Assembly (NCBI RefSeq): GCF_003334305.1
Contig: NZ_QOWS01000033.1
DNA from: Escherichia coli
GTDB lineage: Bacteria > Pseudomonadota > Gammaproteobacteria > Enterobacterales > Enterobacteriaceae
DNA: 35,452 bases
Strand: one strand, 5' to 3'
Positions within the stretch are counted from its first letter, which is position 1; every line of letters starts with the position of its first letter. The translations under genes and the position numbers were made by a program. Below are positions 4,430 to 11,866 of the stretch, piece after piece. Below the pieces are notes generated by a model. The model was not told where the DNA came from. It saw nothing but the letters and a program-made list of their open reading frames with translations, and made no database searches.

Positions 4430-4563
4430 CGGTTGACGATCTGGTGGCAGATATCGCCACCATTTTTCACTGGCCGCCATCCGTTACTGACGTTATGCCG
4501 CTGACCGAAGTGCTGGAATGGCGGTATAAAGCGATTCAGAGAAGCGGGGCCAACGATGAGTGA
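4127..4563 (+). CDS. gpE+E' frameshift-extended tail chaperone (join 4127..4389, 4389..4563)
   Basis: Hand translation of the -1 frame after the heptamer gives VEEVGACRFTDSLTVDDLVADIATIFHWPPSVTDVMPLTEVLEWRYKAIQRSGANDE*. The TGA at 4561-4563 overlaps the T start. Confidence 0.8.
4384..4390 (+). other. -1 programmed frameshift slippery heptamer T TTT TTG
   Basis: TTTTTTG sits in the frame T.TTT.TTG of gpE, the same heptamer reported for P2 E/E+E'. The -1 frame stays open to 4563. Confidence 0.8.
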
Positions 4564-7500
4564 TAACAACCTGCGTCTGCAGGTCATTCTTAATGCGGTT
4601 GACAAGCTCACCCGCCCATTTCGATCTGCGCAGGCCAGTTCAAGAGAACTGGCTGCTGCTGTCAAAAAATCCCGCGATGCAATAAAGCAGCTTGATCAGG
4701 CCGGGAGCAGTCTGGACAGCTTCCGAAAGCTGCAGGCAGAAAATCAGAAATTAGGCGACAGGCTGAACTATGCCCGCCAGCGTGCAAATTTGCTCAGTCA
4801 GGAACTGGGAGCGATGGGGCCGCCTTCGCAACGTCAGGTTGTTGCTCTGGGCCGTCAACGGCTGGCTGTTCAGCGCCTGGAAGAACGCCAGAAAAAGCTG
4901 CAGCAGCAGACGGCGCTTGTGCGTGCTGAACTGTACCGGGCGGGAATTTCTGCGAAAGACGATGCGGGAGCAACTGCCCGTTTAGCCCGTGAAACATCAC
5001 GTTATAACCAGGAACTTTCGAAACAGGAGGCGCGGCTGAAGCGACTGGGGGAAGCTCAGCGCAGGATGAATGCAGCGCGTGCCAGTTATGCCCGTTCGCT
5101 GGAGGTGCGTGATCGTATTGCAGGTGCCGGAGCCACCACCACGGCTGCAGGGCTGGCAATGGGTGCGCCAGTGATGGCGGCAGTAAAAAGCTATACCAGC
5201 ATGGAAGATGCCATGAAAGGTGTGGCAAAGCAGGTCAATGGTCTGCGTGACGATAATGGCAACCGCACTGCACGTTTTTATGAAATGCAGGATGCCATCA
5301 AGGCTGCCAGCGAACAGTTGCCGATGGAAAACGGTGCGGTGGACTTCGCTGCACTGGTTGAAGGTGGTGCGCGCATGAACGTCGCAAACCCTGACGACAG
5401 CTGGGAAGATCAGAAACGTGACCTGCTGGCCTTCGCCAGTACGGCAGCAAAGGCGGCAACAGCCTTTGAGCTGCCAGCGGATGAACTGTCAGAAAGTCTG
5501 GGGAAAATCGCCCAGCTCTACAAAATCCCCACCCGCAATATTGAACAGCTCGGTGATGCGCTGAACTATCTGGATGATAACGCCATGTCGAAAGGGGCAG
5601 ACATCATTGATGTGATGCAACGTCTGGGCGGTGTGGCTGACCGTCTGGATTATCGTAAAGCGGCGGCGCTGGGTTCCACCTTCCTGACACTGGGCGCTGC
5701 GCCGGAGGTTGCAGCCAGTGCAGCAAACGCGATGGTGCGTGAATTGTCCATTGCCACCATGCAAAGCAAGAGTTTCTTTGAAGGGATGAATCTGCTGAAA
5801 CTCAATCCTGAAGTGATTGAAAAGCAGATGACGAAGGATGCGATGGGAACCATCCAGCGCGTGCTGGAGAAGGTAAACGCGCTGCCGCAGGACAAGCGCC
5901 TGTCTGCCATGACTATGTTGTTTGGTAAAGAGTTTGGCGATGACGCGGCGAAACTGGCAAACAACCTGCCGGAACTGCAGCGTCAGTTAAAACTGACAGC
6001 GGGCAATGATGCGCTTGGCTCCATGCAGAAAGAATCCGACATTAACAAGGATTCACTTTCTGCGCAGTGGTTGCTGGTCAAAACCGGAGCGCAGAACACC
6101 TTCAGCAGCCTGGGCGAAACGCTGCGCCAGCCGCTGATGGATATTCTGTACACGGTGAAAAGCGTCACGGGGGCGTTGCGTCGCTGGGTGGAAGCTAACC
6201 CGGAACTGACAGGCACACTGATGAAAGCATCGGCTGTTGTGGCTGCGGTTACCGTCGGCCTCGGCACCTTAGCGGTGGCGCTGGCTGCAGTGCTGGGGCC
6301 GCTGGCAGTGATCCGTCTGGGATTCTCTGTGTTGGGTATCAAAACGTTATCTTCCGTTACGGCAGCAGTAACTCGAACCAGCAGCGCGTTGTCCTGGCTG
6401 GCTGGCGCACCACTGGCACTGCTGCGACGCGGGCTTGCTTCATCGGGCAACGCCGCAGGTTTACTTACTGCGCCGTTGTCGTCTTTGCGCCGCACGGCAT
6501 CACTGACGGGAAATGTCCTGAAAACTGTAGCAGGTGCGCCGGTTGCACTTTTGCGGTCTGGATTATCCGGTTTACGTGCGGTTGCTGTGATGTTTATGAA
6601 TCCACTGGCAGCACTACGCGGCGGGCTGGCTGCCGCAGGCACGGTGCTGCGAGTACTGGCATCTGGTCCACTGGCGATGTTGCGCGTTGCCCTGTATGCC
6701 GTATCTGGTCTGTTAGGTGCTCTGCTCAGTCCGATAGGTCTTGTGGTTACTGCACTGGCGGGTGTGGCACTGGTTGTCTGGAAATACTGGCAACCCATCA
6801 CCGCATTTCTCGGTGGCGTGGTGGAAGGATTCAAAGCGGCGGCAGGTCCCATCAGTGCAGCGTTCGAACCGCTTAAGCCTGTGTTCCAGTGGATTGGTGA
6901 CAAAGTGCAGGCGCTGTGGGGCTGGTTTACTGATCTGCTGACGCCCGTTAAGTCGACTTCTGCCGAACTGCAGAGCGCAGCGGCAATGGGGCGACGATTC
7001 GGGGAGGCACTGGCGGAAGGGCTGAATATGGTCATGCATCCGCTGGACTCCCTGAAATCCGGCGTTTCCTGGTTGCTGGAGAAGCTCGGCATTATCAGTA
7101 AAGAGGCCGCAAAGGCAAAACTGCCGGAAAGCGTGACGCGTCAGCAACCTGCGACGGTGAATGCAGACGGTAAAGTGATGATGCCATCGGGTGGTTTTCC
7201 GTCATGGGGATATGGCTTTGCGGGGATGTATGACAGCGGCGGCTATATCCCGCGCGGGCAGTTTGGCATCGTCGGTGAAAACGGGCCGGAAATTGTTAAC
7301 GGCCCGGCAAATGTGACCAGCCGGAGAAATACAGCTGCACTGGCTGCCGTTGTTGCCGGAATGATGGGCGTTGCTGCCGCGCCTGCAGAGCTTCCACCGT
7401 TGCACCCTTTGGCACTTCCCGCGAAAGGCGGCGAAGCGATGGTGAGTCGTGCAGCCACTGTGCCGCCCGTTCAACGGATTGAGGCACCGATGCAGATCAT

Positions 7501-7633
7501 CATTCAGACGCAGCCAGGACAAAGTGCGCAGGATATTGCGCGGGAGGTGGCCCGCCAGCTTGATGAACGTGAACGCAGGCTGAAGGCAAAAGCCAGGAGT
7601 AACTACAGCGATCAGGGGGGATACGACGCATGA
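4556..7633 (+). CDS. Tail tape measure protein (gpT)
   Basis: 1025-aa ORF with a coiled-coil N-terminus and a central hydrophobic repeat block. Its position after E/E' fits. Confidence 0.95.
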   Translation: MSDNNLRLQVILNAVDKLTRPFRSAQASSRELAAAVKKSRDAIKQLDQAGSSLDSFRKLQAENQKLGDRLNYARQRANLLSQELGAMGPPSQRQVVALGRQRLAVQRLEERQKKLQQQTALVRAELYRAGISAKDDAGATARLARETSRYNQELSKQEARLKRLGEAQRRMNAARASYARSLEVRDRIAGAGATTTAAGLAMGAPVMAAVKSYTSMEDAMKGVAKQVNGLRDDNGNRTARFYEMQDAIKAASEQLPMENGAVDFAALVEGGARMNVANPDDSWEDQKRDLLAFASTAAKAATAFELPADELSESLGKIAQLYKIPTRNIEQLGDALNYLDDNAMSKGADIIDVMQRLGGVADRLDYRKAAALGSTFLTLGAAPEVAASAANAMVRELSIATMQSKSFFEGMNLLKLNPEVIEKQMTKDAMGTIQRVLEKVNALPQDKRLSAMTMLFGKEFGDDAAKLANNLPELQRQLKLTAGNDALGSMQKESDINKDSLSAQWLLVKTGAQNTFSSLGETLRQPLMDILYTVKSVTGALRRWVEANPELTGTLMKASAVVAAVTVGLGTLAVALAAVLGPLAVIRLGFSVLGIKTLSSVTAAVTRTSSALSWLAGAPLALLRRGLASSGNAAGLLTAPLSSLRRTASLTGNVLKTVAGAPVALLRSGLSGLRAVAVMFMNPLAALRGGLAAAGTVLRVLASGPLAMLRVALYAVSGLLGALLSPIGLVVTALAGVALVVWKYWQPITAFLGGVVEGFKAAAGPISAAFEPLKPVFQWIGDKVQALWGWFTDLLTPVKSTSAELQSAAAMGRRFGEALAEGLNMVMHPLDSLKSGVSWLLEKLGIISKEAAKAKLPESVTRQQPATVNADGKVMMPSGGFPSWGYGFAGMYDSGGYIPRGQFGIVGENGPEIVNGPANVTSRRNTAALAAVVAGMMGVAAAPAELPPLHPLALPAKGGEAMVSRAATVPPVQRIEAPMQIIIQTQPGQSAQDIAREVARQLDERERRLKAKARSNYSDQGGYDA

Positions 7634-8115
7634 TGATGGTGCTGGGATTGTACGTGTTTATGCTGCGCACCGTGCCGTATCAGGAGCTGCAGTATCAACG
7701 CAGCTGGCGACATGCGGCAAACAGCCGGGTAAACCGACGTCCGTCCACGCAGTTTCTGGGACCGGACAACGACATGCTGACGCTTTCCGGTGTTCTTATG
7801 CCGGAGATAACAGGTGGCAGGCTGTCGTTGCTGGCACTGGAGCAGATGGCAGAACAGGGGAAAGCATGGCCCCTGATTGAAGGCAGCGGCACGATTTATG
7901 GCATGTATGTGATTGAGGGACTGAATCAGACTAAAACGGAGTTTTTCCGCGACGGTATGCCGCGCCGGATTGAGTTCACCCTGTCGCTCAAACGGGTGGA
8001 TGAATCCCTGTCCGATATGTTCGGTGATCTCAGTGCGCAACTGAATAATCTGCAGGAAACGGCAACGTCTGCCTTAAGCGATATCAGTAAAACGGTGGGA
8101 GGGCTGCTGTCGTGA
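7630..8115 (+). CDS. Tail protein gpU
   Basis: 161 aa, ATGA overlap with T. MMMVLGLYVFMLRTVPYQELQ.. is a P2 gpU-type sequence. Confidence 0.9.
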   Translation: MMMVLGLYVFMLRTVPYQELQYQRSWRHAANSRVNRRPSTQFLGPDNDMLTLSGVLMPEITGGRLSLLALEQMAEQGKAWPLIEGSGTIYGMYVIEGLNQTKTEFFRDGMPRRIEFTLSLKRVDESLSDMFGDLSAQLNNLQETATSALSDISKTVGGLLS

Positions 8116-9212
8116 ATTTCAGCTCTGAACTGCTTAACAAAAGCAACAAAACTCCGGCATTCAGCATCAGTATTGAGGGCAGGGATATCACTACTGTGCT
8201 GGATAACCGCCTGATGAGTCTGACTCTGACGGACAATCGGGGCTTTGAAGCAGACCAGCTTGATCTGGAGCTGGACGATGCCGACGGGAAAATCGTGCTG
8301 CCGCGCCGTGGTGCGGTCATTACGCTGGCGCTGGGCTGGAAGGGGCAGCCGCTTTTCCCGAAAGGGGCATTCACGGTGGACGAGATTGAACACACTGGCG
8401 CACCGGACCGCCTGACTATCCGGGCGCGAAGTGCTGATTTTCGGGAAACGCTGAATACCCGCCGTGAAAAATCGTGGCACAAGACCACCATTGGGGAAGT
8501 GGTGAAGGAGATAGCCGCGCGGCACAAGCTGAAGATGGTACTGGGTAAAGACCTGTCGGATAAGCTCGTGGAGCATATAGACCAGACTAATGAGAGTGAC
8601 GGTAGTTTTCTGATGCGGCTGGCGCGCCAGTACGGTGCTATTGCGTCGGTGAAAAATGGCAATCTGTTATTCATCCGGCAGGGACAGGGCAAAAGTGCCA
8701 GCGGTAAACCACTGCCGGTGATCACTATCACACGTAAGGACGGCGACAGTCACCGCTTTACCCTGGCAGATCGCGGAGCCTATACGGGCATAATTGCCAG
8801 CTGGTTGCATACCCGCGAACCCGCGAAGAAAGAAAGCACCACGGTGAAGCGTAAGCGCAGGACTAAGAAGCAGAAGAAAGAGCCGGAAGCGAAGCAGGGC
8901 GATTACCTGGTGGGTACGGATGAAAACGTGCTGGTACTTAATCGCACTTATGCCAACCGGAGCAACGCTGAACGGGCAGCGAAAATGCAGTGGGAACGCC
9001 TGCAACGCGGCGTTGCGTCATTCTCGCTACAACTGGCGGAAGGGCGGGCAGATCTCTACACGGAAATGCCAGTGAAAGTCAGTGGCTTTAAACAGCCGAT
9101 AGATGATGCGGAATGGACCATTACGACTCTGACACATACCGTCAGCCCGGATAATGGTTTTACGACCAGTCTTGAGCTTGAAGTGAAGGTTGATGATCTC
9201 GAAATGGAATGA
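8112..9212 (+). CDS. Tail/late protein gpD
   Basis: 366 aa, GTGA overlap with U. The ..ISIEGRDIT..LMSLTLTDNRGFEADQLDLELDD.. motif is typical of gpD. Confidence 0.9.
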   Translation: MNFSSELLNKSNKTPAFSISIEGRDITTVLDNRLMSLTLTDNRGFEADQLDLELDDADGKIVLPRRGAVITLALGWKGQPLFPKGAFTVDEIEHTGAPDRLTIRARSADFRETLNTRREKSWHKTTIGEVVKEIAARHKLKMVLGKDLSDKLVEHIDQTNESDGSFLMRLARQYGAIASVKNGNLLFIRQGQGKSASGKPLPVITITRKDGDSHRFTLADRGAYTGIIASWLHTREPAKKESTTVKRKRRTKKQKKEPEAKQGDYLVGTDENVLVLNRTYANRSNAERAAKMQWERLQRGVASFSLQLAEGRADLYTEMPVKVSGFKQPIDDAEWTITTLTHTVSPDNGFTTSLELEVKVDDLEME

Positions 9213-9302: not shown

Positions 9303-9521
9303 ATGATGATTTGCCCACTGTGTGGAAGTGCCGCCCATACTCGCAGCAGTTTTCAGGTATCTTCATTGACCAAAGAGCGTTACAACCAGTGCCAGAACAT
9401 TAACTGCAGCCATACTTTTGTTACCCATGAAACTTTTGTTCGTTCGATTGCAACGCCAAAAGAGTCAAATCCGGTTCAGCCGCATCCTCATAAATTTAAA
9501 CAGGTGGGTTTGCCGATTTAA
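9303..9521 (+). CDS. ogr: Ogr late-gene transcriptional activator (zinc-finger)
   Basis: MMICPLCGSAAHTRSS...KERYNQCQNINCSHTF has the Cys-X2-Cys...Cys-X4-Cys pattern of P2 Ogr. Starting at 9303 gives 72 aa. The ORF track start at 9270 and the ATG at 9285 are alternatives. Confidence 0.9.
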   Translation: MMICPLCGSAAHTRSSFQVSSLTKERYNQCQNINCSHTFVTHETFVRSIATPKESNPVQPHPHKFKQVGLPI

Positions 9522-9585
9522 ATGGCGACATAACTACATGATTTAAAACTATACTTTTCTATAAGTTGAGGTTAAATTAACAATG

Positions 9586-9762
9586 CCTGACGTTAGCGGG
9601 GATTTATCCCCACTCCGTAGATATGTAGTTTGTCGCTTTGCGACTGCGGACCGATTACCTGATTGCCATGTAATCGGACGCCGACTTGTTAAGCTTTCTG
9701 GGCTAACTGGTTGTTATTTTTTATTTAGTTAGGGCCATGCGCTTGCGCTAAGAGACGTCAGG
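9586..9762 (+). ncRNA. Candidate structured RNA upstream of the RT (retron msr/msd-like or DRT-type template RNA); ends not determined
   Basis: There is no credible ORF. A long-range helix pairs 9586-9598 (CCTGACGTTAGCG) with 9746-9751 + 9756-9762 (CGCTAA / CGTCAGG), leaving a 4-nt bulge. It encloses abutting hairpins at 9598-9611, 9614-9650, 9651-9677 (8-bp stem CCGATTAC/GTAATCGG) and 9701-9736. Folded by eye only. Confidence 0.45.
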
Positions 9763-9782
9763 TATCTATGGAGGAACAAGTT

Positions 9783-9956
9783 ATGGATACAAACGAACTT
9801 GGCTTAGTTAAGGCGCGTGTTGAACTGATCACCGCTATGCTCAAATGCGCAACCGCGTTTGTTGGCTTAGTTGGTGCGGTTTACGCCGTTCTTAACATGG
9901 CCTTCAACTACAACAATTTAACTCATGACAATAGAAGTTCAAAGGTGGGAAGATAA
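9783..9956 (+). CDS. Small hydrophobic protein (57 aa, one predicted TM helix), candidate effector/toxin partner of the RT
   Basis: GGAGGA at 9770-9775 lies 7 nt before the ATG at 9783. The sequence is MDTNELGLVKARVELITAMLKCATAFVGLVGAVYAVLNMAFNYNNLTHDNRSSKVGR, with a hydrophobic core CATAFVGLVGAVYAVLNMAF. Its 3' end overlaps the RT start by 32 nt. It could instead be part of the ncRNA. Confidence 0.5.
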   Translation: MDTNELGLVKARVELITAMLKCATAFVGLVGAVYAVLNMAFNYNNLTHDNRSSKVGR

Positions 9957-10698
9957 ATTTGAGATTAAGCCCGGGGTTTGGGTTTATGTCCCAAGCGTTG
10001 AGGCACGTAAAGTCGGAGGGAAGATACTTCAGGCTGTCAGAAACAAGTGGATTCCGCCACTCTATTTTTACCATCTAAGAACTGGTGGGCATCTTAAAGC
10101 TGCCAGATTACACTTAAAAAGTGATTTTTTTGCCGTTGTTGATATTAAACAATTTTTTCAGTCAACGAGCCGTAGTCGTATCACCCGTGATCTAAAGAGC
10201 TACTTCACCTATTCTCAAGCGCGGGAAATCTCAACATTTTCAACTGTAAGAAACTTGTCCCATAGTCCACATAAGCATGTCCTCCCTTTTGGTTTTGTTC
10301 AATCTCCAATACTTGCAACCCTCTGCTTAGATAAAAGTTATTTTGGTAGCTTACTACGCCGATTGAACAAACATCATGATCTCAAGCTAAGTGTGTTTAT
10401 GGATGATGTGATCATCTCGTCAAACGATTTGGCCCAATTACAAGCGGCTTACGACGAAGCACTAGTGGCAATGCGTAAATCTGGTTATCAAGCCAACATG
10501 AGTAAAACTCAGGCACCATCGTCAAAGATTAGCGTGTTTAATTTAACTTTGAGTAAGGGAGTTATGAAAGTCACATCTCAGAAAATGAGTGACTTCCTGA
10601 TTGATTTCTATTCAAGCAATTATGAGCCGCACAGAATAGGGGTCAAAAACTACGTCGAAGCTGTTAATCCAGGGCAAGCGAAACTCTTTAAGTTGTAA
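9925..10698 (+). CDS. Minimal reverse transcriptase (257 aa), retron/DRT-like, unclassified
   Basis: RT motifs seen in order: KVGGKIL (motif 1-like), FFAVVDIKQFFQSTS (motif A, Asp at 10141-10143), LPFGFVQSPILATLCL (motif B'), LSVFMDDVIISS (motif C, FMDD at 10396-10407), GYQANMSKTQ (motif D), ISVFNLTLS (motif E). Only ~50 aa follow motif E. Confidence 0.85.
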   Translation: MTIEVQRWEDKFEIKPGVWVYVPSVEARKVGGKILQAVRNKWIPPLYFYHLRTGGHLKAARLHLKSDFFAVVDIKQFFQSTSRSRITRDLKSYFTYSQAREISTFSTVRNLSHSPHKHVLPFGFVQSPILATLCLDKSYFGSLLRRLNKHHDLKLSVFMDDVIISSNDLAQLQAAYDEALVAMRKSGYQANMSKTQAPSSKISVFNLTLSKGVMKVTSQKMSDFLIDFYSSNYEPHRIGVKNYVEAVNPGQAKLFKL

Positions 10699-10767
10699 TT
10701 GCGATCGCATGTAGTAGCAACTGGGCTTGACTGAATGTCTGCCGCCATTTTGCCGCCACTACTAAAG

Positions 10768-10795
10768 AAAAAAGGGCTACGCTTTCACGTAACCC
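10768..10795 (-). terminator. Rho-independent terminator immediately after ssrA
   Basis: The minus strand reads GGGTTACG-TGAAAG-CGTAGCCC followed by TTTTTT. It begins 12 nt after the CCA end. Confidence 0.75.
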
Positions 10796-10806
10796 CTTGA
10801 TTTATT

Positions 10807-11169
10807 TGGTGGAGCTGGCGGGAGTTGAACCCGCGTCCGAAATTCCTACATCCTCGGTACTACATGCTTAGTCAGTCTTTACATTCGCTTGCCAGCTGCG
10901 GACGGACACGCCACTAACAAACTAGCCTGATTAAGTTTTAACGCTTCAACCCCAGGCAGGGCTTCCACGCGATCTCTTTTGGGTTTGACCTCTCTTGATC
11001 CCCGTCCTAAGAGCGGAGGCTAGGGAGAGAGGGCTCTAAGCAGGTTATTAAGCTGCTAAAGCGTAGTTTTCGTCGTTTGCGACTATTTTTTGCGGCTTTT
11101 TACGAGGCCAACCGCCCCTCGGCATGCACCTTGGGTTTCGCAAATCCCGTCGAATCCAGAATCAGCCCC
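10807..11169 (-). ncRNA. ssrA: tmRNA (SsrA), 363 nt
   Basis: The reverse complement reads GGGGCTGATTCTGGATTCGACGGGATTTGCG...GGTTCAACTCCCGCCAGCTCCACCA. The tag ORF GCAAACGACGAAAACTACGCTTTAGCAGCTTAA (ANDENYALAA*) is at 11080-11048. Confidence 0.98.
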
Positions 11170-11383: not shown

Positions 11384-11866
11384 TTAACGGTGGGCGTTTT
11401 TCATGATACGTGCTTTATCCACCTGCCATTCGCGTTCTTTGATATCTGAACGTTTATCGTGCTGTTTTTTACCTTTGGCGACGCCGATTTTCACTTTGCA
11501 CCAGGCATTTTTCCAGTACAGGGAGAGCGCCACTACGGTATAGCCTTCTCGATTGACGCGACCGTACAATGAGTCCAGTTCGCGTTGGTTGAGAAGTAAC
11601 TTGCGGGTACGGGTAGGATCGCACACCACATGCGTGGAGGCCACGGCCATTGGCGTGATGTTAGCGCCAAACAGAAATGCCTCTCCGTCACGCAGAAGGA
11701 CGTAGCTGTCGCTGATATTGGCTTTTCCTGCGCGCAGGGATTTAACCTCCCAGCCTTGCAGGGCAAGTCCCGCTTCGAACTCTTCTTCGATAAAGTATTC
11801 GTGACGGGCGCGCTTGTTAAGCGCGATGGTCGCTGAACCAGGTTTATGTGCTTTTTTCTTCGTCAT
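11384..11866 (-). CDS. smpB: SsrA-binding protein SmpB
   Basis: The 160-aa sequence [45 protein letters not shown].. is recognised. It lies adjacent to ssrA. Confidence 0.98.

Follow-up and report, generated by a model that had tools for sequence, protein, structure and literature searches.

A small helical protein encoded between a retron-like RNA and a minimal reverse transcriptase in a P2-like prophage: a candidate effector or partner under RNA control

The DNA described here is a stretch of 35,452 nucleotides (nt) from Escherichia coli (contig NZ_QOWS01000033.1 of assembly GCF_003334305.1), which we refer to as the window. It is part of an enterobacterial chromosome with a P2-like prophage inserted at ssrA, the gene for transfer-messenger RNA (tmRNA). 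At the ogr/attR end of the prophage lies a self-contained module of about 1.1 kb, made up of a candidate non-coding RNA (ncRNA), a small open reading frame (ORF) and a gene for a reverse transcriptase (RT). From ogr to the ssrA attachment end the window holds this module and nothing else. The product of the ORF, which we call SP for small protein, is the subject of this work. An original prediction, made from the letters of the window, had proposed that SP is a membrane-spanning effector of a retron-type cassette. The features are collected in Table 1.

Table 1. Features of the module, its RNA arms and the surrounding genes, in window coordinates.
Feature	Position	Strand	Remarks
Candidate msr-msd ncRNA	9583-9765	+	about 185 nt, bounded by inverted repeats a1/a2
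a1 arm	9583-9594	+	ATGCCTGACGTT; pairs with a2
a2 arm	9754-9765	+	GACGTCAGGTAT; pairs with a1
Anti-SD arm	9613-9624	+	CTCCGTAGATAT (CUCCGUAGAUAU); about 30 nt 3′ of a1; pairs with 9762-9773
SD-containing arm	9762-9773	+	GTATCTATGGAG (GUAUCUAUGGAG); overlaps a2 by 4 nt
H-C 5′ arm	9726-9739	+	UAGUU + AGGGCCAUG; directly 5′ of the conserved GCGC hairpin (9739-9748)
H-C 3′ arm	9896-9910	+	inside SP, codons of (N)-M-A-F-N-Y; 15 nt 5′ of the RT ATG
Small ORF (SP)	9783-9956	+	ATG 9783, stop 9954-9956, 57 amino acids
SP/RT overlap	9925-9956	+	32 nt, RT in the +1 frame
Minimal retron-type RT	9925-10698	+	257 amino acids, FMDD catalytic motif
Tail tape measure gene	4556-7633		prophage
gpU-like gene	7630-8115		prophage
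gpD-like gene	8112-9212		prophage
ogr	end at 9521		prophage
ssrA (tmRNA gene)	10807-11169	-	296 bits
smpB	11384-11866	-	next after the tmRNA gene

The signals of the small ORF are as the original prediction had read them. A Shine–Dalgarno (SD) sequence, GGAGGA, stands at 9770-9775 with a 7-nt spacer to the ATG, and the end of the ORF overlaps the start of the RT. The RT has no SD of its own, there being no purine-rich stretch in TACAACAATTTAACTC-ATG. The amphipathic N-terminus and the hydrophobic core followed by a polar tail can also be seen in the translation, where the uncharged stretch runs to 22 residues (CATAFVGLVGAVYAVLNMAFNY). A further in-frame ATG at 9768, reading M-E-E-Q-V before the Met at 9783, lies within the SD-containing arm and would give a product of 62 amino acids (aa); it has no SD, and both PGAP and the homologues favour 9783. 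In the RefSeq/PGAP annotation the ORF is hypothetical protein WP_000380485.1, and this small gene is usually either annotated as hypothetical or missed.

Relatives of the RT were gathered by scanning one genome per species. This gave 80 loci with RT identities of 33-81%, drawn from gamma-, beta- and alphaproteobacteria with a few from other taxa. An equivalent small ORF stands before the RT in 76 of 83 loci and ends shortly past the RT start, nearly always with an ATG and a strong SD. From the Met to an invariant Asn-Tyr the homologues have 31-52 codons, and in the window this conserved part is Met1-Tyr43 (9783-9911). The tail after Asn-Tyr, which is conserved in neither length nor sequence, amounts to read-through in the frame overlapping the RT. 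Pairwise ratios of non-synonymous to synonymous change (dN/dS) have a median of 0.34 in the ORF's own frame and of 1.16 and 1.71 in the two shifted frames. Conservation in homologous loci and selection in the proper frame both speak for the ORF that was originally predicted, and judged by them SP is a genuine conserved coding gene of the RT cassette and no chance ORF. One SP homologue, protein P0008, is labelled Bacillus thuringiensis and sits on a contig of 249 base pairs (bp); it is probably contamination rather than an occurrence in Firmicutes.

Upstream of SP, the inverted repeats a1 and a2 bound a candidate msr-msd RNA. The closing stem has 12 bp (z = -2.8 for the fold), and across the loci the arms pair over 7-12 bp. 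Covariation was measured on a MAFFT alignment, A11, that had not been fitted to any structure. In it, six of the seven a1/a2 pairs were changed on both sides, 99% of the cells were paired, and cognate and non-cognate combinations of the arms clearly differ. Directly at the end of a1 comes UAGC (9594-9597), in which G9596 is a candidate for the branching G, and the motif (G/A)(A/U)UAG(G/C) follows a1 in most loci. No Rfam family matches the ncRNA, the sole Rfam match being the neighbouring tmRNA. A 49-aa ORF (9583-9732, plus strand) lies wholly within the ncRNA; it matches no family and is most likely spurious.

The RT matches Pfam RVT_1 at 2e-21, and its top PADLOC and NCBIfam matches are mostly retron RT models, with modest scores of 50-73 bits (50-63 bits for the best PADLOC matches of the window RT). 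The best PADLOC model for the window RT and for its relative P0052, though not for the locus L009, is RT_VI, whose scores (52-73 bits) are close to those of RT_I-B, RT_II-A and Cas-associated RT models. The PDB sequences nearest to the RT are retron RTs, and in Foldseek the retron RTs Ec86, Ec83, Ec78 and Eco8 rank first with TM-scores of 0.6-0.68. A HMMER scan of 1.84 billion representatives found at least 222 RT clusters at 50% identity (E <= 1e-30). Nearly all of these are 250-265 aa long and start exactly where the window RT starts. By these comparisons the RT belongs to the retron/retron-like RT lineage, and together with the a1/a2 arms and the UAG(C/G) motif this lineage makes the cassette retron-like. 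The retron-type cassette of the original prediction is thus upheld by the RT matches and the covarying arms.

A DRT2/Neo-type system was considered for this cassette and rejected. The RT matches retron models, UG2 and UG28 are absent among its top PADLOC matches, and the ncRNA has the a1/a2 and UAG elements. In the Foldseek ranking the DRT2 structure comes 33rd, behind all retron RTs, and the DRT9 structures are placed 19-20.

Two further long-range helices connect the ncRNA with the ORF. The first is predicted to bury the SD of SP, with the anti-SD arm paired to an arm that covers GGAG, the first four bases of GGAGGA. In most gamma- and betaproteobacterial loci the anti-SD arm keeps its relative position, at 23-42 nt after a1. 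The sequences of the two arms vary by locus while their complementarity is kept, e.g. UCCUCAUCAG with UUGAUGAGGA and CCUCUAUUC with GAAUAGAGG. At least eight Watson–Crick bp can be formed in 66% of the cognate combinations, as against 6.6% of the non-cognate ones. The helix is not evident in the alphaproteobacterial subgroup. According to the original prediction the peptide would be kept silent by the RT and its cDNA. This part found no support in the sequence, where the sole silencing visible is the anti-SD pairing at the level of RNA.

The second helix, which we call H-C, emerged from a general scan for complementarity between ncRNA and ORF. The overall signal of that scan was weak, and H-C was then tested separately. 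It pairs CAUGGCCUU with 9731-9739 and AACUA with 9726-9730, and it is present in the RNAfold minimum free energy structure of 9575-9965 (391 nt). In alignment A11, six of the eight pairs in one segment of the helix were changed on both sides, and in four sequences a synonymous change of the Asn codon from AAC to AAU is matched by a G to A change in the ncRNA. As the loci are related to one another, the P-values of cognate against non-cognate tests are inflated; controls with slid partners, which the kinship of the loci does not affect, were paired in 27-41% against 93%. The 3′ arm of H-C covers the N-M-A-F-N-Y codons, so part of the conservation of this motif lies at the RNA level. For annotators this is a caution, in that the conservation of a peptide motif can partly be a signal of RNA structure. 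In the alphaproteobacterial group H-C covers the RT's own SD and ATG. In these loci (L063-L083) the RT ATG overlaps the Tyr codon of SP (AAC UAU G) and the S-K-V codons supply the AAGG that serves the RT as its SD; the conserved end of the peptide, the initiation signals of the RT and the 3′ arm of H-C are here the same nucleotides.

The arms follow one another in the order a1, anti-SD, H-C 5′ arm, a2, SD, H-C 3′ arm, and the three long-range helices therefore cross each other. They would have to be either alternative conformers or pseudoknots. A possible additional contact involves the conserved R-L-V codons near the start of the ORF (9801-9812; columns ~270-280 of A11). These mostly read CGC CUA GUU, with the rare Leu codon CUA at 28 of 59 Leu in this position, and are complementary to the branch-site motif UAGGCG after a1; the window's subfamily has GGC UUA GUU. 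On the strength of this complementarity the R-L-V codons and the branch-site motif may form a fourth RNA contact.

The overlap of SP and RT is found throughout the family. It spans 4-172 nt; the frame of the RT is +1 in 59 loci and +2 in 13, and in one locus the RT is in frame. Most of the family's RTs have no SD, and the RT start always falls within the SP frame or at its end. Together with a covarying helix near the RT start, these properties make the translational coupling suggested by the original prediction plausible. The sequence supports an arrangement in which SP is a translated partner of the RT, the initiation site of SP is controlled by the retron RNA and RT initiation is structurally subordinate to the translation of SP. 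A programmed frameshift joining the two frames is unlikely, because the relative frame varies (+1, +2, 0) and no shared slippery site was seen; an RT-frame stop 3 nt before the RT ATG of the window also counts against it.

Might the ORF do nothing more than this? It could be an upstream ORF that, by being translated, opens the helix over the RT start and thereby determines how much RT is made, with a peptide that has no function of its own. Such a role would fit an RT without an SD whose start lies within the ORF, a covarying helix with its 3′ arm within the ORF just 5′ of the RT start, and an SD of the ORF that is itself under RNA control. We nevertheless regard a functionless peptide as improbable. 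Purifying selection on the amino acids is specific to the frame (0.34 against 1.2-1.7), and both the length and the pattern of a basic N-terminus with a hydrophobic helix are kept across RTs that are only 33-45% identical. The Asn-Tyr is invariant while the third position of the Tyr codon varies freely (TAT in 39, TAC in 34), and in-frame fusions of the peptide to the RT, described below, are tolerated.

What kind of protein is SP? Across the family it has a basic N-terminus (M-K-K-F-x-Y-R-L-V...) and after it a single helix of hydrophobic or amphipathic character, which ends in L-L-N-M-A-F-N-Y or, in the alphaproteobacterial group, in L-S-K-V-V-N-Y. SP has no match in Pfam, PADLOC, NCBIfam or PDB, and in PHROGs a single insignificant one (E = 0.079). 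The original prediction had seen a single transmembrane segment. Assessed with simple hydrophobicity scales, this is marginally true of the window's subfamily but is not a property of the family. The SP of the window has a best 19-residue Kyte–Doolittle window of 1.94 and a marginal position-independent Hessa-scale sum of about +1.9 kcal/mol. In the family, the median of this sum is +4.1 kcal/mol, the longest uncharged run has a median of 13 aa, and a run of at least 18 aa is found in just 11 of the 76 homologues.

These values bear on a special case of an effector role, namely that SP is a single-pass peptide resembling a holin or a type I toxin and acts by inserting into the membrane. The 22-residue uncharged stretch and the Kyte–Doolittle value of the window's subfamily would suit such a peptide. 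The Hessa-scale sums, here and in the family, and the scarcity of long uncharged runs among the homologues do not, and there is no Pfam, PHROG or PADLOC match to lend it support. Moreover, by the positive-inside rule a basic N-terminus followed by one span would be expected to place a fused RT outside the cell. Type I toxins and holin-like peptides thus differ from the SP family, in which these simple scales find no conserved membrane-spanning helix, and we consider membrane insertion of this kind quite unlikely.

Natural fusions of SP to the RT are another source of information. An in-frame fusion of SP to the RT is found in a Klebsiella cluster of 302 aa, which has 173 member sequences and at least 1,000 contigs. 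Further in-frame fusions are a relative at 69% identity, a 309-aa Serratia cluster, a 306-aa cluster and a Kistimonas locus. Three of the fusions were verified at the DNA level, and loci from IMG/VR were used for context. Sister loci in Ewingella and Pantoea have nearly the same peptide out of frame. Fusions are rare, making up three of 120 clusters at 90% identity among the matches listed and about 2-3 of the top 150 representatives. Where SP is fused to the RT the free peptide is not made, so in this family it is not always made.

The fusions raise the possibility that the RT is split. SP would then be the detached N-terminal helical segment, or extension, of a retron RT that is produced as its own polypeptide through tight translational coupling, docks on the 255-aa core and is needed for folding, ncRNA binding or priming. 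It would be no effector, and killing or arrest would lie in the cDNA product or a host factor. Compared with Ec86, the RTs of the family lack about 50 aa at the N-terminus, and an RT-only profile aligns to Ec86 60-295. When SP is added (Met to Asn-Tyr, 31-52 aa) the alignment becomes collinear from residue 35 of Ec86. The conserved part of SP stops 0-10 codons before the RT Met, its unconserved read-through fits a split by frameshift, and the natural fusions keep the same order and junction. In many homologues the 'hydrophobic core' contains charged residues, as would be fitting for an amphipathic helix that docks. DRT2 and DRT9 defend with an RT and an ncRNA only and are examples of systems that manage without a separate effector protein. 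Several results tell against a split RT, however. The addition of SP brings no gain in score against retron RT profiles or the retron RTs in PDB (45.9 against 48.7 bits), and an SP-only profile matches no retron RT N-terminus. In an AlphaFold2 model of a natural fusion, residues 1-49 are unplaced, with a predicted local distance difference test (pLDDT) score of 40-58; only three sequences cover them, so that the model weighs little. In addition, the split is kept in about 97% of the clusters, across three proteobacterial classes. We hold a split RT to be the main alternative, conceivable but less likely than the reading that follows.

The reading that we prefer is that SP is a protein effector or partner of the retron, translationally gated and coupled to the RT. 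By analogy with known retrons we give it a probability of roughly 40%. SP would be a small helical hydrophobic protein and the only protein partner of a minimal retron-type RT, and it is a candidate for the effector because the cassette offers no other conserved protein. Across the 80 loci no conserved neighbour gene was found beside the RT. The position of the module is also of interest, as the cargo at prophage ends is a typical site of defence genes.

The mechanism that we envisage runs as follows. In the resting fold the anti-SD helix would keep the translation of SP down. Ribosomes that do translate SP would melt H-C, and only then could the RT initiate. With RT initiation dependent on SP translation, synthesis of the two proteins would go hand in hand, with their order fixed. 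By analogy with the hybrid RNAs of Type VI retrons, we propose that the RNA would be refolded by reverse transcription, by RNase H processing or by a phage trigger, and that more SP would be produced as a result. SP might then arrest or kill the infected cell by means of its hydrophobic helix, with the complex of RT and multicopy single-stranded DNA (msDNA) acting as its restraint.

A number of points weigh against an effector role for SP, whose toxicity and membrane action are putative. SP has no detectable similarity to any family, and a helix competent to span the membrane is not conserved across its homologues. SP is fused to the RT in several independent lineages, among them the very abundant Klebsiella cluster. 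The striking conservation of the C-terminal motif is partly at the RNA level, and three crossing helices leave the actual fold or switch ambiguous. The RT_VI match amounts to only 63-73 bits, and unlike in Type VI retrons there is no helix-turn-helix (HTH) antitoxin here.

A more specific proposal within our preferred reading describes an unclassified minimal retron type of about 1.1 kb with a 255-aa RT. Its sole effector would be a peptide of about 45 aa encoded in the RNA, and RNA remodelling by reverse transcription or a phage trigger would set the output of toxin relative to RT, with no HTH antitoxin. Taken as a whole this proposal is doubtful, with the odds against it. One component of it, that of the three crossing, covarying helices one controls the SD of the peptide and another the start of the RT, is put forward just as guardedly.

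The Type VI retrons (Retron-Vpa2, Retron-Sen3 and Retron-Eco12) provide the closest comparison. They combine a hybrid RNA, an SP toxin, an HTH protein and an RT, and their SP toxins are 55-79 aa long with a hydrophobic core and are encoded inside the retron transcript (bioRxiv 10.1101/2025.10.22.683967; 10.64898/2026.04.27.721009). The ribosome-binding site (RBS) of the Type VI SP is sequestered and inverted repeats flank SP; in Retron-Vpa2, msDNA derepresses the translation of SP. An HTH protein of the Cro/C1 type stands beside the RT in about 78% of the members, and the SPs fall in clusters cl2075, cl2760, cl3272 and cl3897 or in the 'Large' lineage. The RTs of Types IV, V and VI have been reported as one monophyletic group.

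Our module resembles Type VI in several respects. Directly after msr-msd, the same structured transcript encodes a small helical protein whose core is hydrophobic, the RBS of SP is sequestered by the ncRNA (here through the anti-SD helix), and inverted repeats join the ncRNA to the end of the SP region (here through H-C). The RTs are short in both, and RT_VI is the best-scoring PADLOC model for the RT of the window. There are also differences. No ORF for a Cro/C1 HTH protein is found here between ncRNA and RT or downstream of the RT. SP overlaps and is coupled to the RT, whereas in Type VI it is separate from it. The RT is shorter (about 255 aa) and has F/YMDD or YVDD where that of Retron-Vpa2 has YADD, and the flanking helix has its downstream arm among the codons of SP rather than after the stop. 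No similarity between the SPs was detected in the searches of Pfam and PADLOC. By analogy, the system would work like a Type VI hybrid-RNA retron without the HTH protein and with an overlapping, coupled pair of SP and RT.

Other known systems are further away. Type IV retrons (Retron-Eco6/Ec48), consisting of an RT, an ncRNA and an effector with two transmembrane segments, have, as the module would, a hydrophobic or membrane effector as their sole accessory protein. Their effector, though, is larger and encoded by a separate gene, while here there is one helix in 31-52 aa that is mostly not transmembrane-like. The canonical retron RTs (Ec86/Eco1, Ec83, Ec78/Eco7 and Eco8) share the fold and are the nearest solved relatives in sequence, and the canonical ncRNA has the same a1/a2 arms and UAG motif. 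Each of these RTs, however, is one chain within the range of 310-380 aa that includes a helical region at its N-terminus. In the module the RT begins with the first beta-hairpin, and the N-terminal position is taken by a separate ORF that overlaps it. DRT2 and DRT9 are also compact modules of RT and ncRNA that need no classical effector gene, but their RTs are of the UG/Abi lineage and they have no a1/a2 and UAG architecture.

The system is a retron by its RT lineage and the architecture of its ncRNA. It fits no typed retron in PADLOC 2.0 or NCBIfam, and we found no paper that describes a system of this ncRNA, SP and RT. The family, with no fewer than 222 RT clusters at 50% identity, is spread over alpha-, beta- and gammaproteobacteria. 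Should SP be the effector, the module would be among the most compact retron defence modules found. A toxin ORF within a retron RNA has only recently been described, in Type VI, and the system would extend that principle to one that has no HTH protein. It also offers a clean model of how RNA folding can couple reverse transcription to the translation of a toxin and of the RT. If SP is instead a detached segment of the RT, the enzyme would consist of two chains. This would matter for what a retron RT minimally requires and for genome editors built on retrons.

The 3′ end of ssrA is the integration site of the prophage, whose final cargo before attR is the RT module. A terminator-like hairpin on the minus strand (10771-10798) is probably the ssrA terminator. 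The P2 defence hotspot of Rousset et al. (Abi-P2) was considered as a description of this site and set aside, since that hotspot is another P2 locus, and its description does not mention a retron at the ogr end. About 260 nt of non-coding sequence separate ogr from the small ORF, and a promoter scan found no consensus sigma-70 site upstream of the ncRNA on the plus strand. In seven E. coli genomes, strain WP4-S18-ESBL-08 (L003 1852-2964) and six others, an IS421 transposase lies between ogr and the ncRNA, about 240 nt 5′ of the small ORF. This insertion may separate the module from its promoter.

The 1.24-kb region of the module (window 9520-10760) was found in 33 of 5,426 complete E. coli genomes, in 29 of them with at least 99% identity. 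In a second E. coli variant (L002 3001-4240) the prophage adjoins ybjL and not ssrA. Compared with the same region of the window, this copy is near-identical over the ncRNA and two thirds of the small ORF, counted from its start, but identity falls to only about 70% from approximately position 9860 onward, which indicates a recombination breakpoint within the hydrophobic helix of the small ORF. The ORF is open in a divergent copy from E. coli strain S171-1, where the prophage is at another site; this copy is a mosaic and hence a weak witness by itself. The region also occurs in 13 Klebsiella pneumoniae phage records (OK490395.1 and others; 35.6-46.7 kb, unannotated) with the module at the right end. 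The identity in these records is 99.7-99.8%, so the P2-like phage that carries the module moves between Escherichia and Klebsiella.

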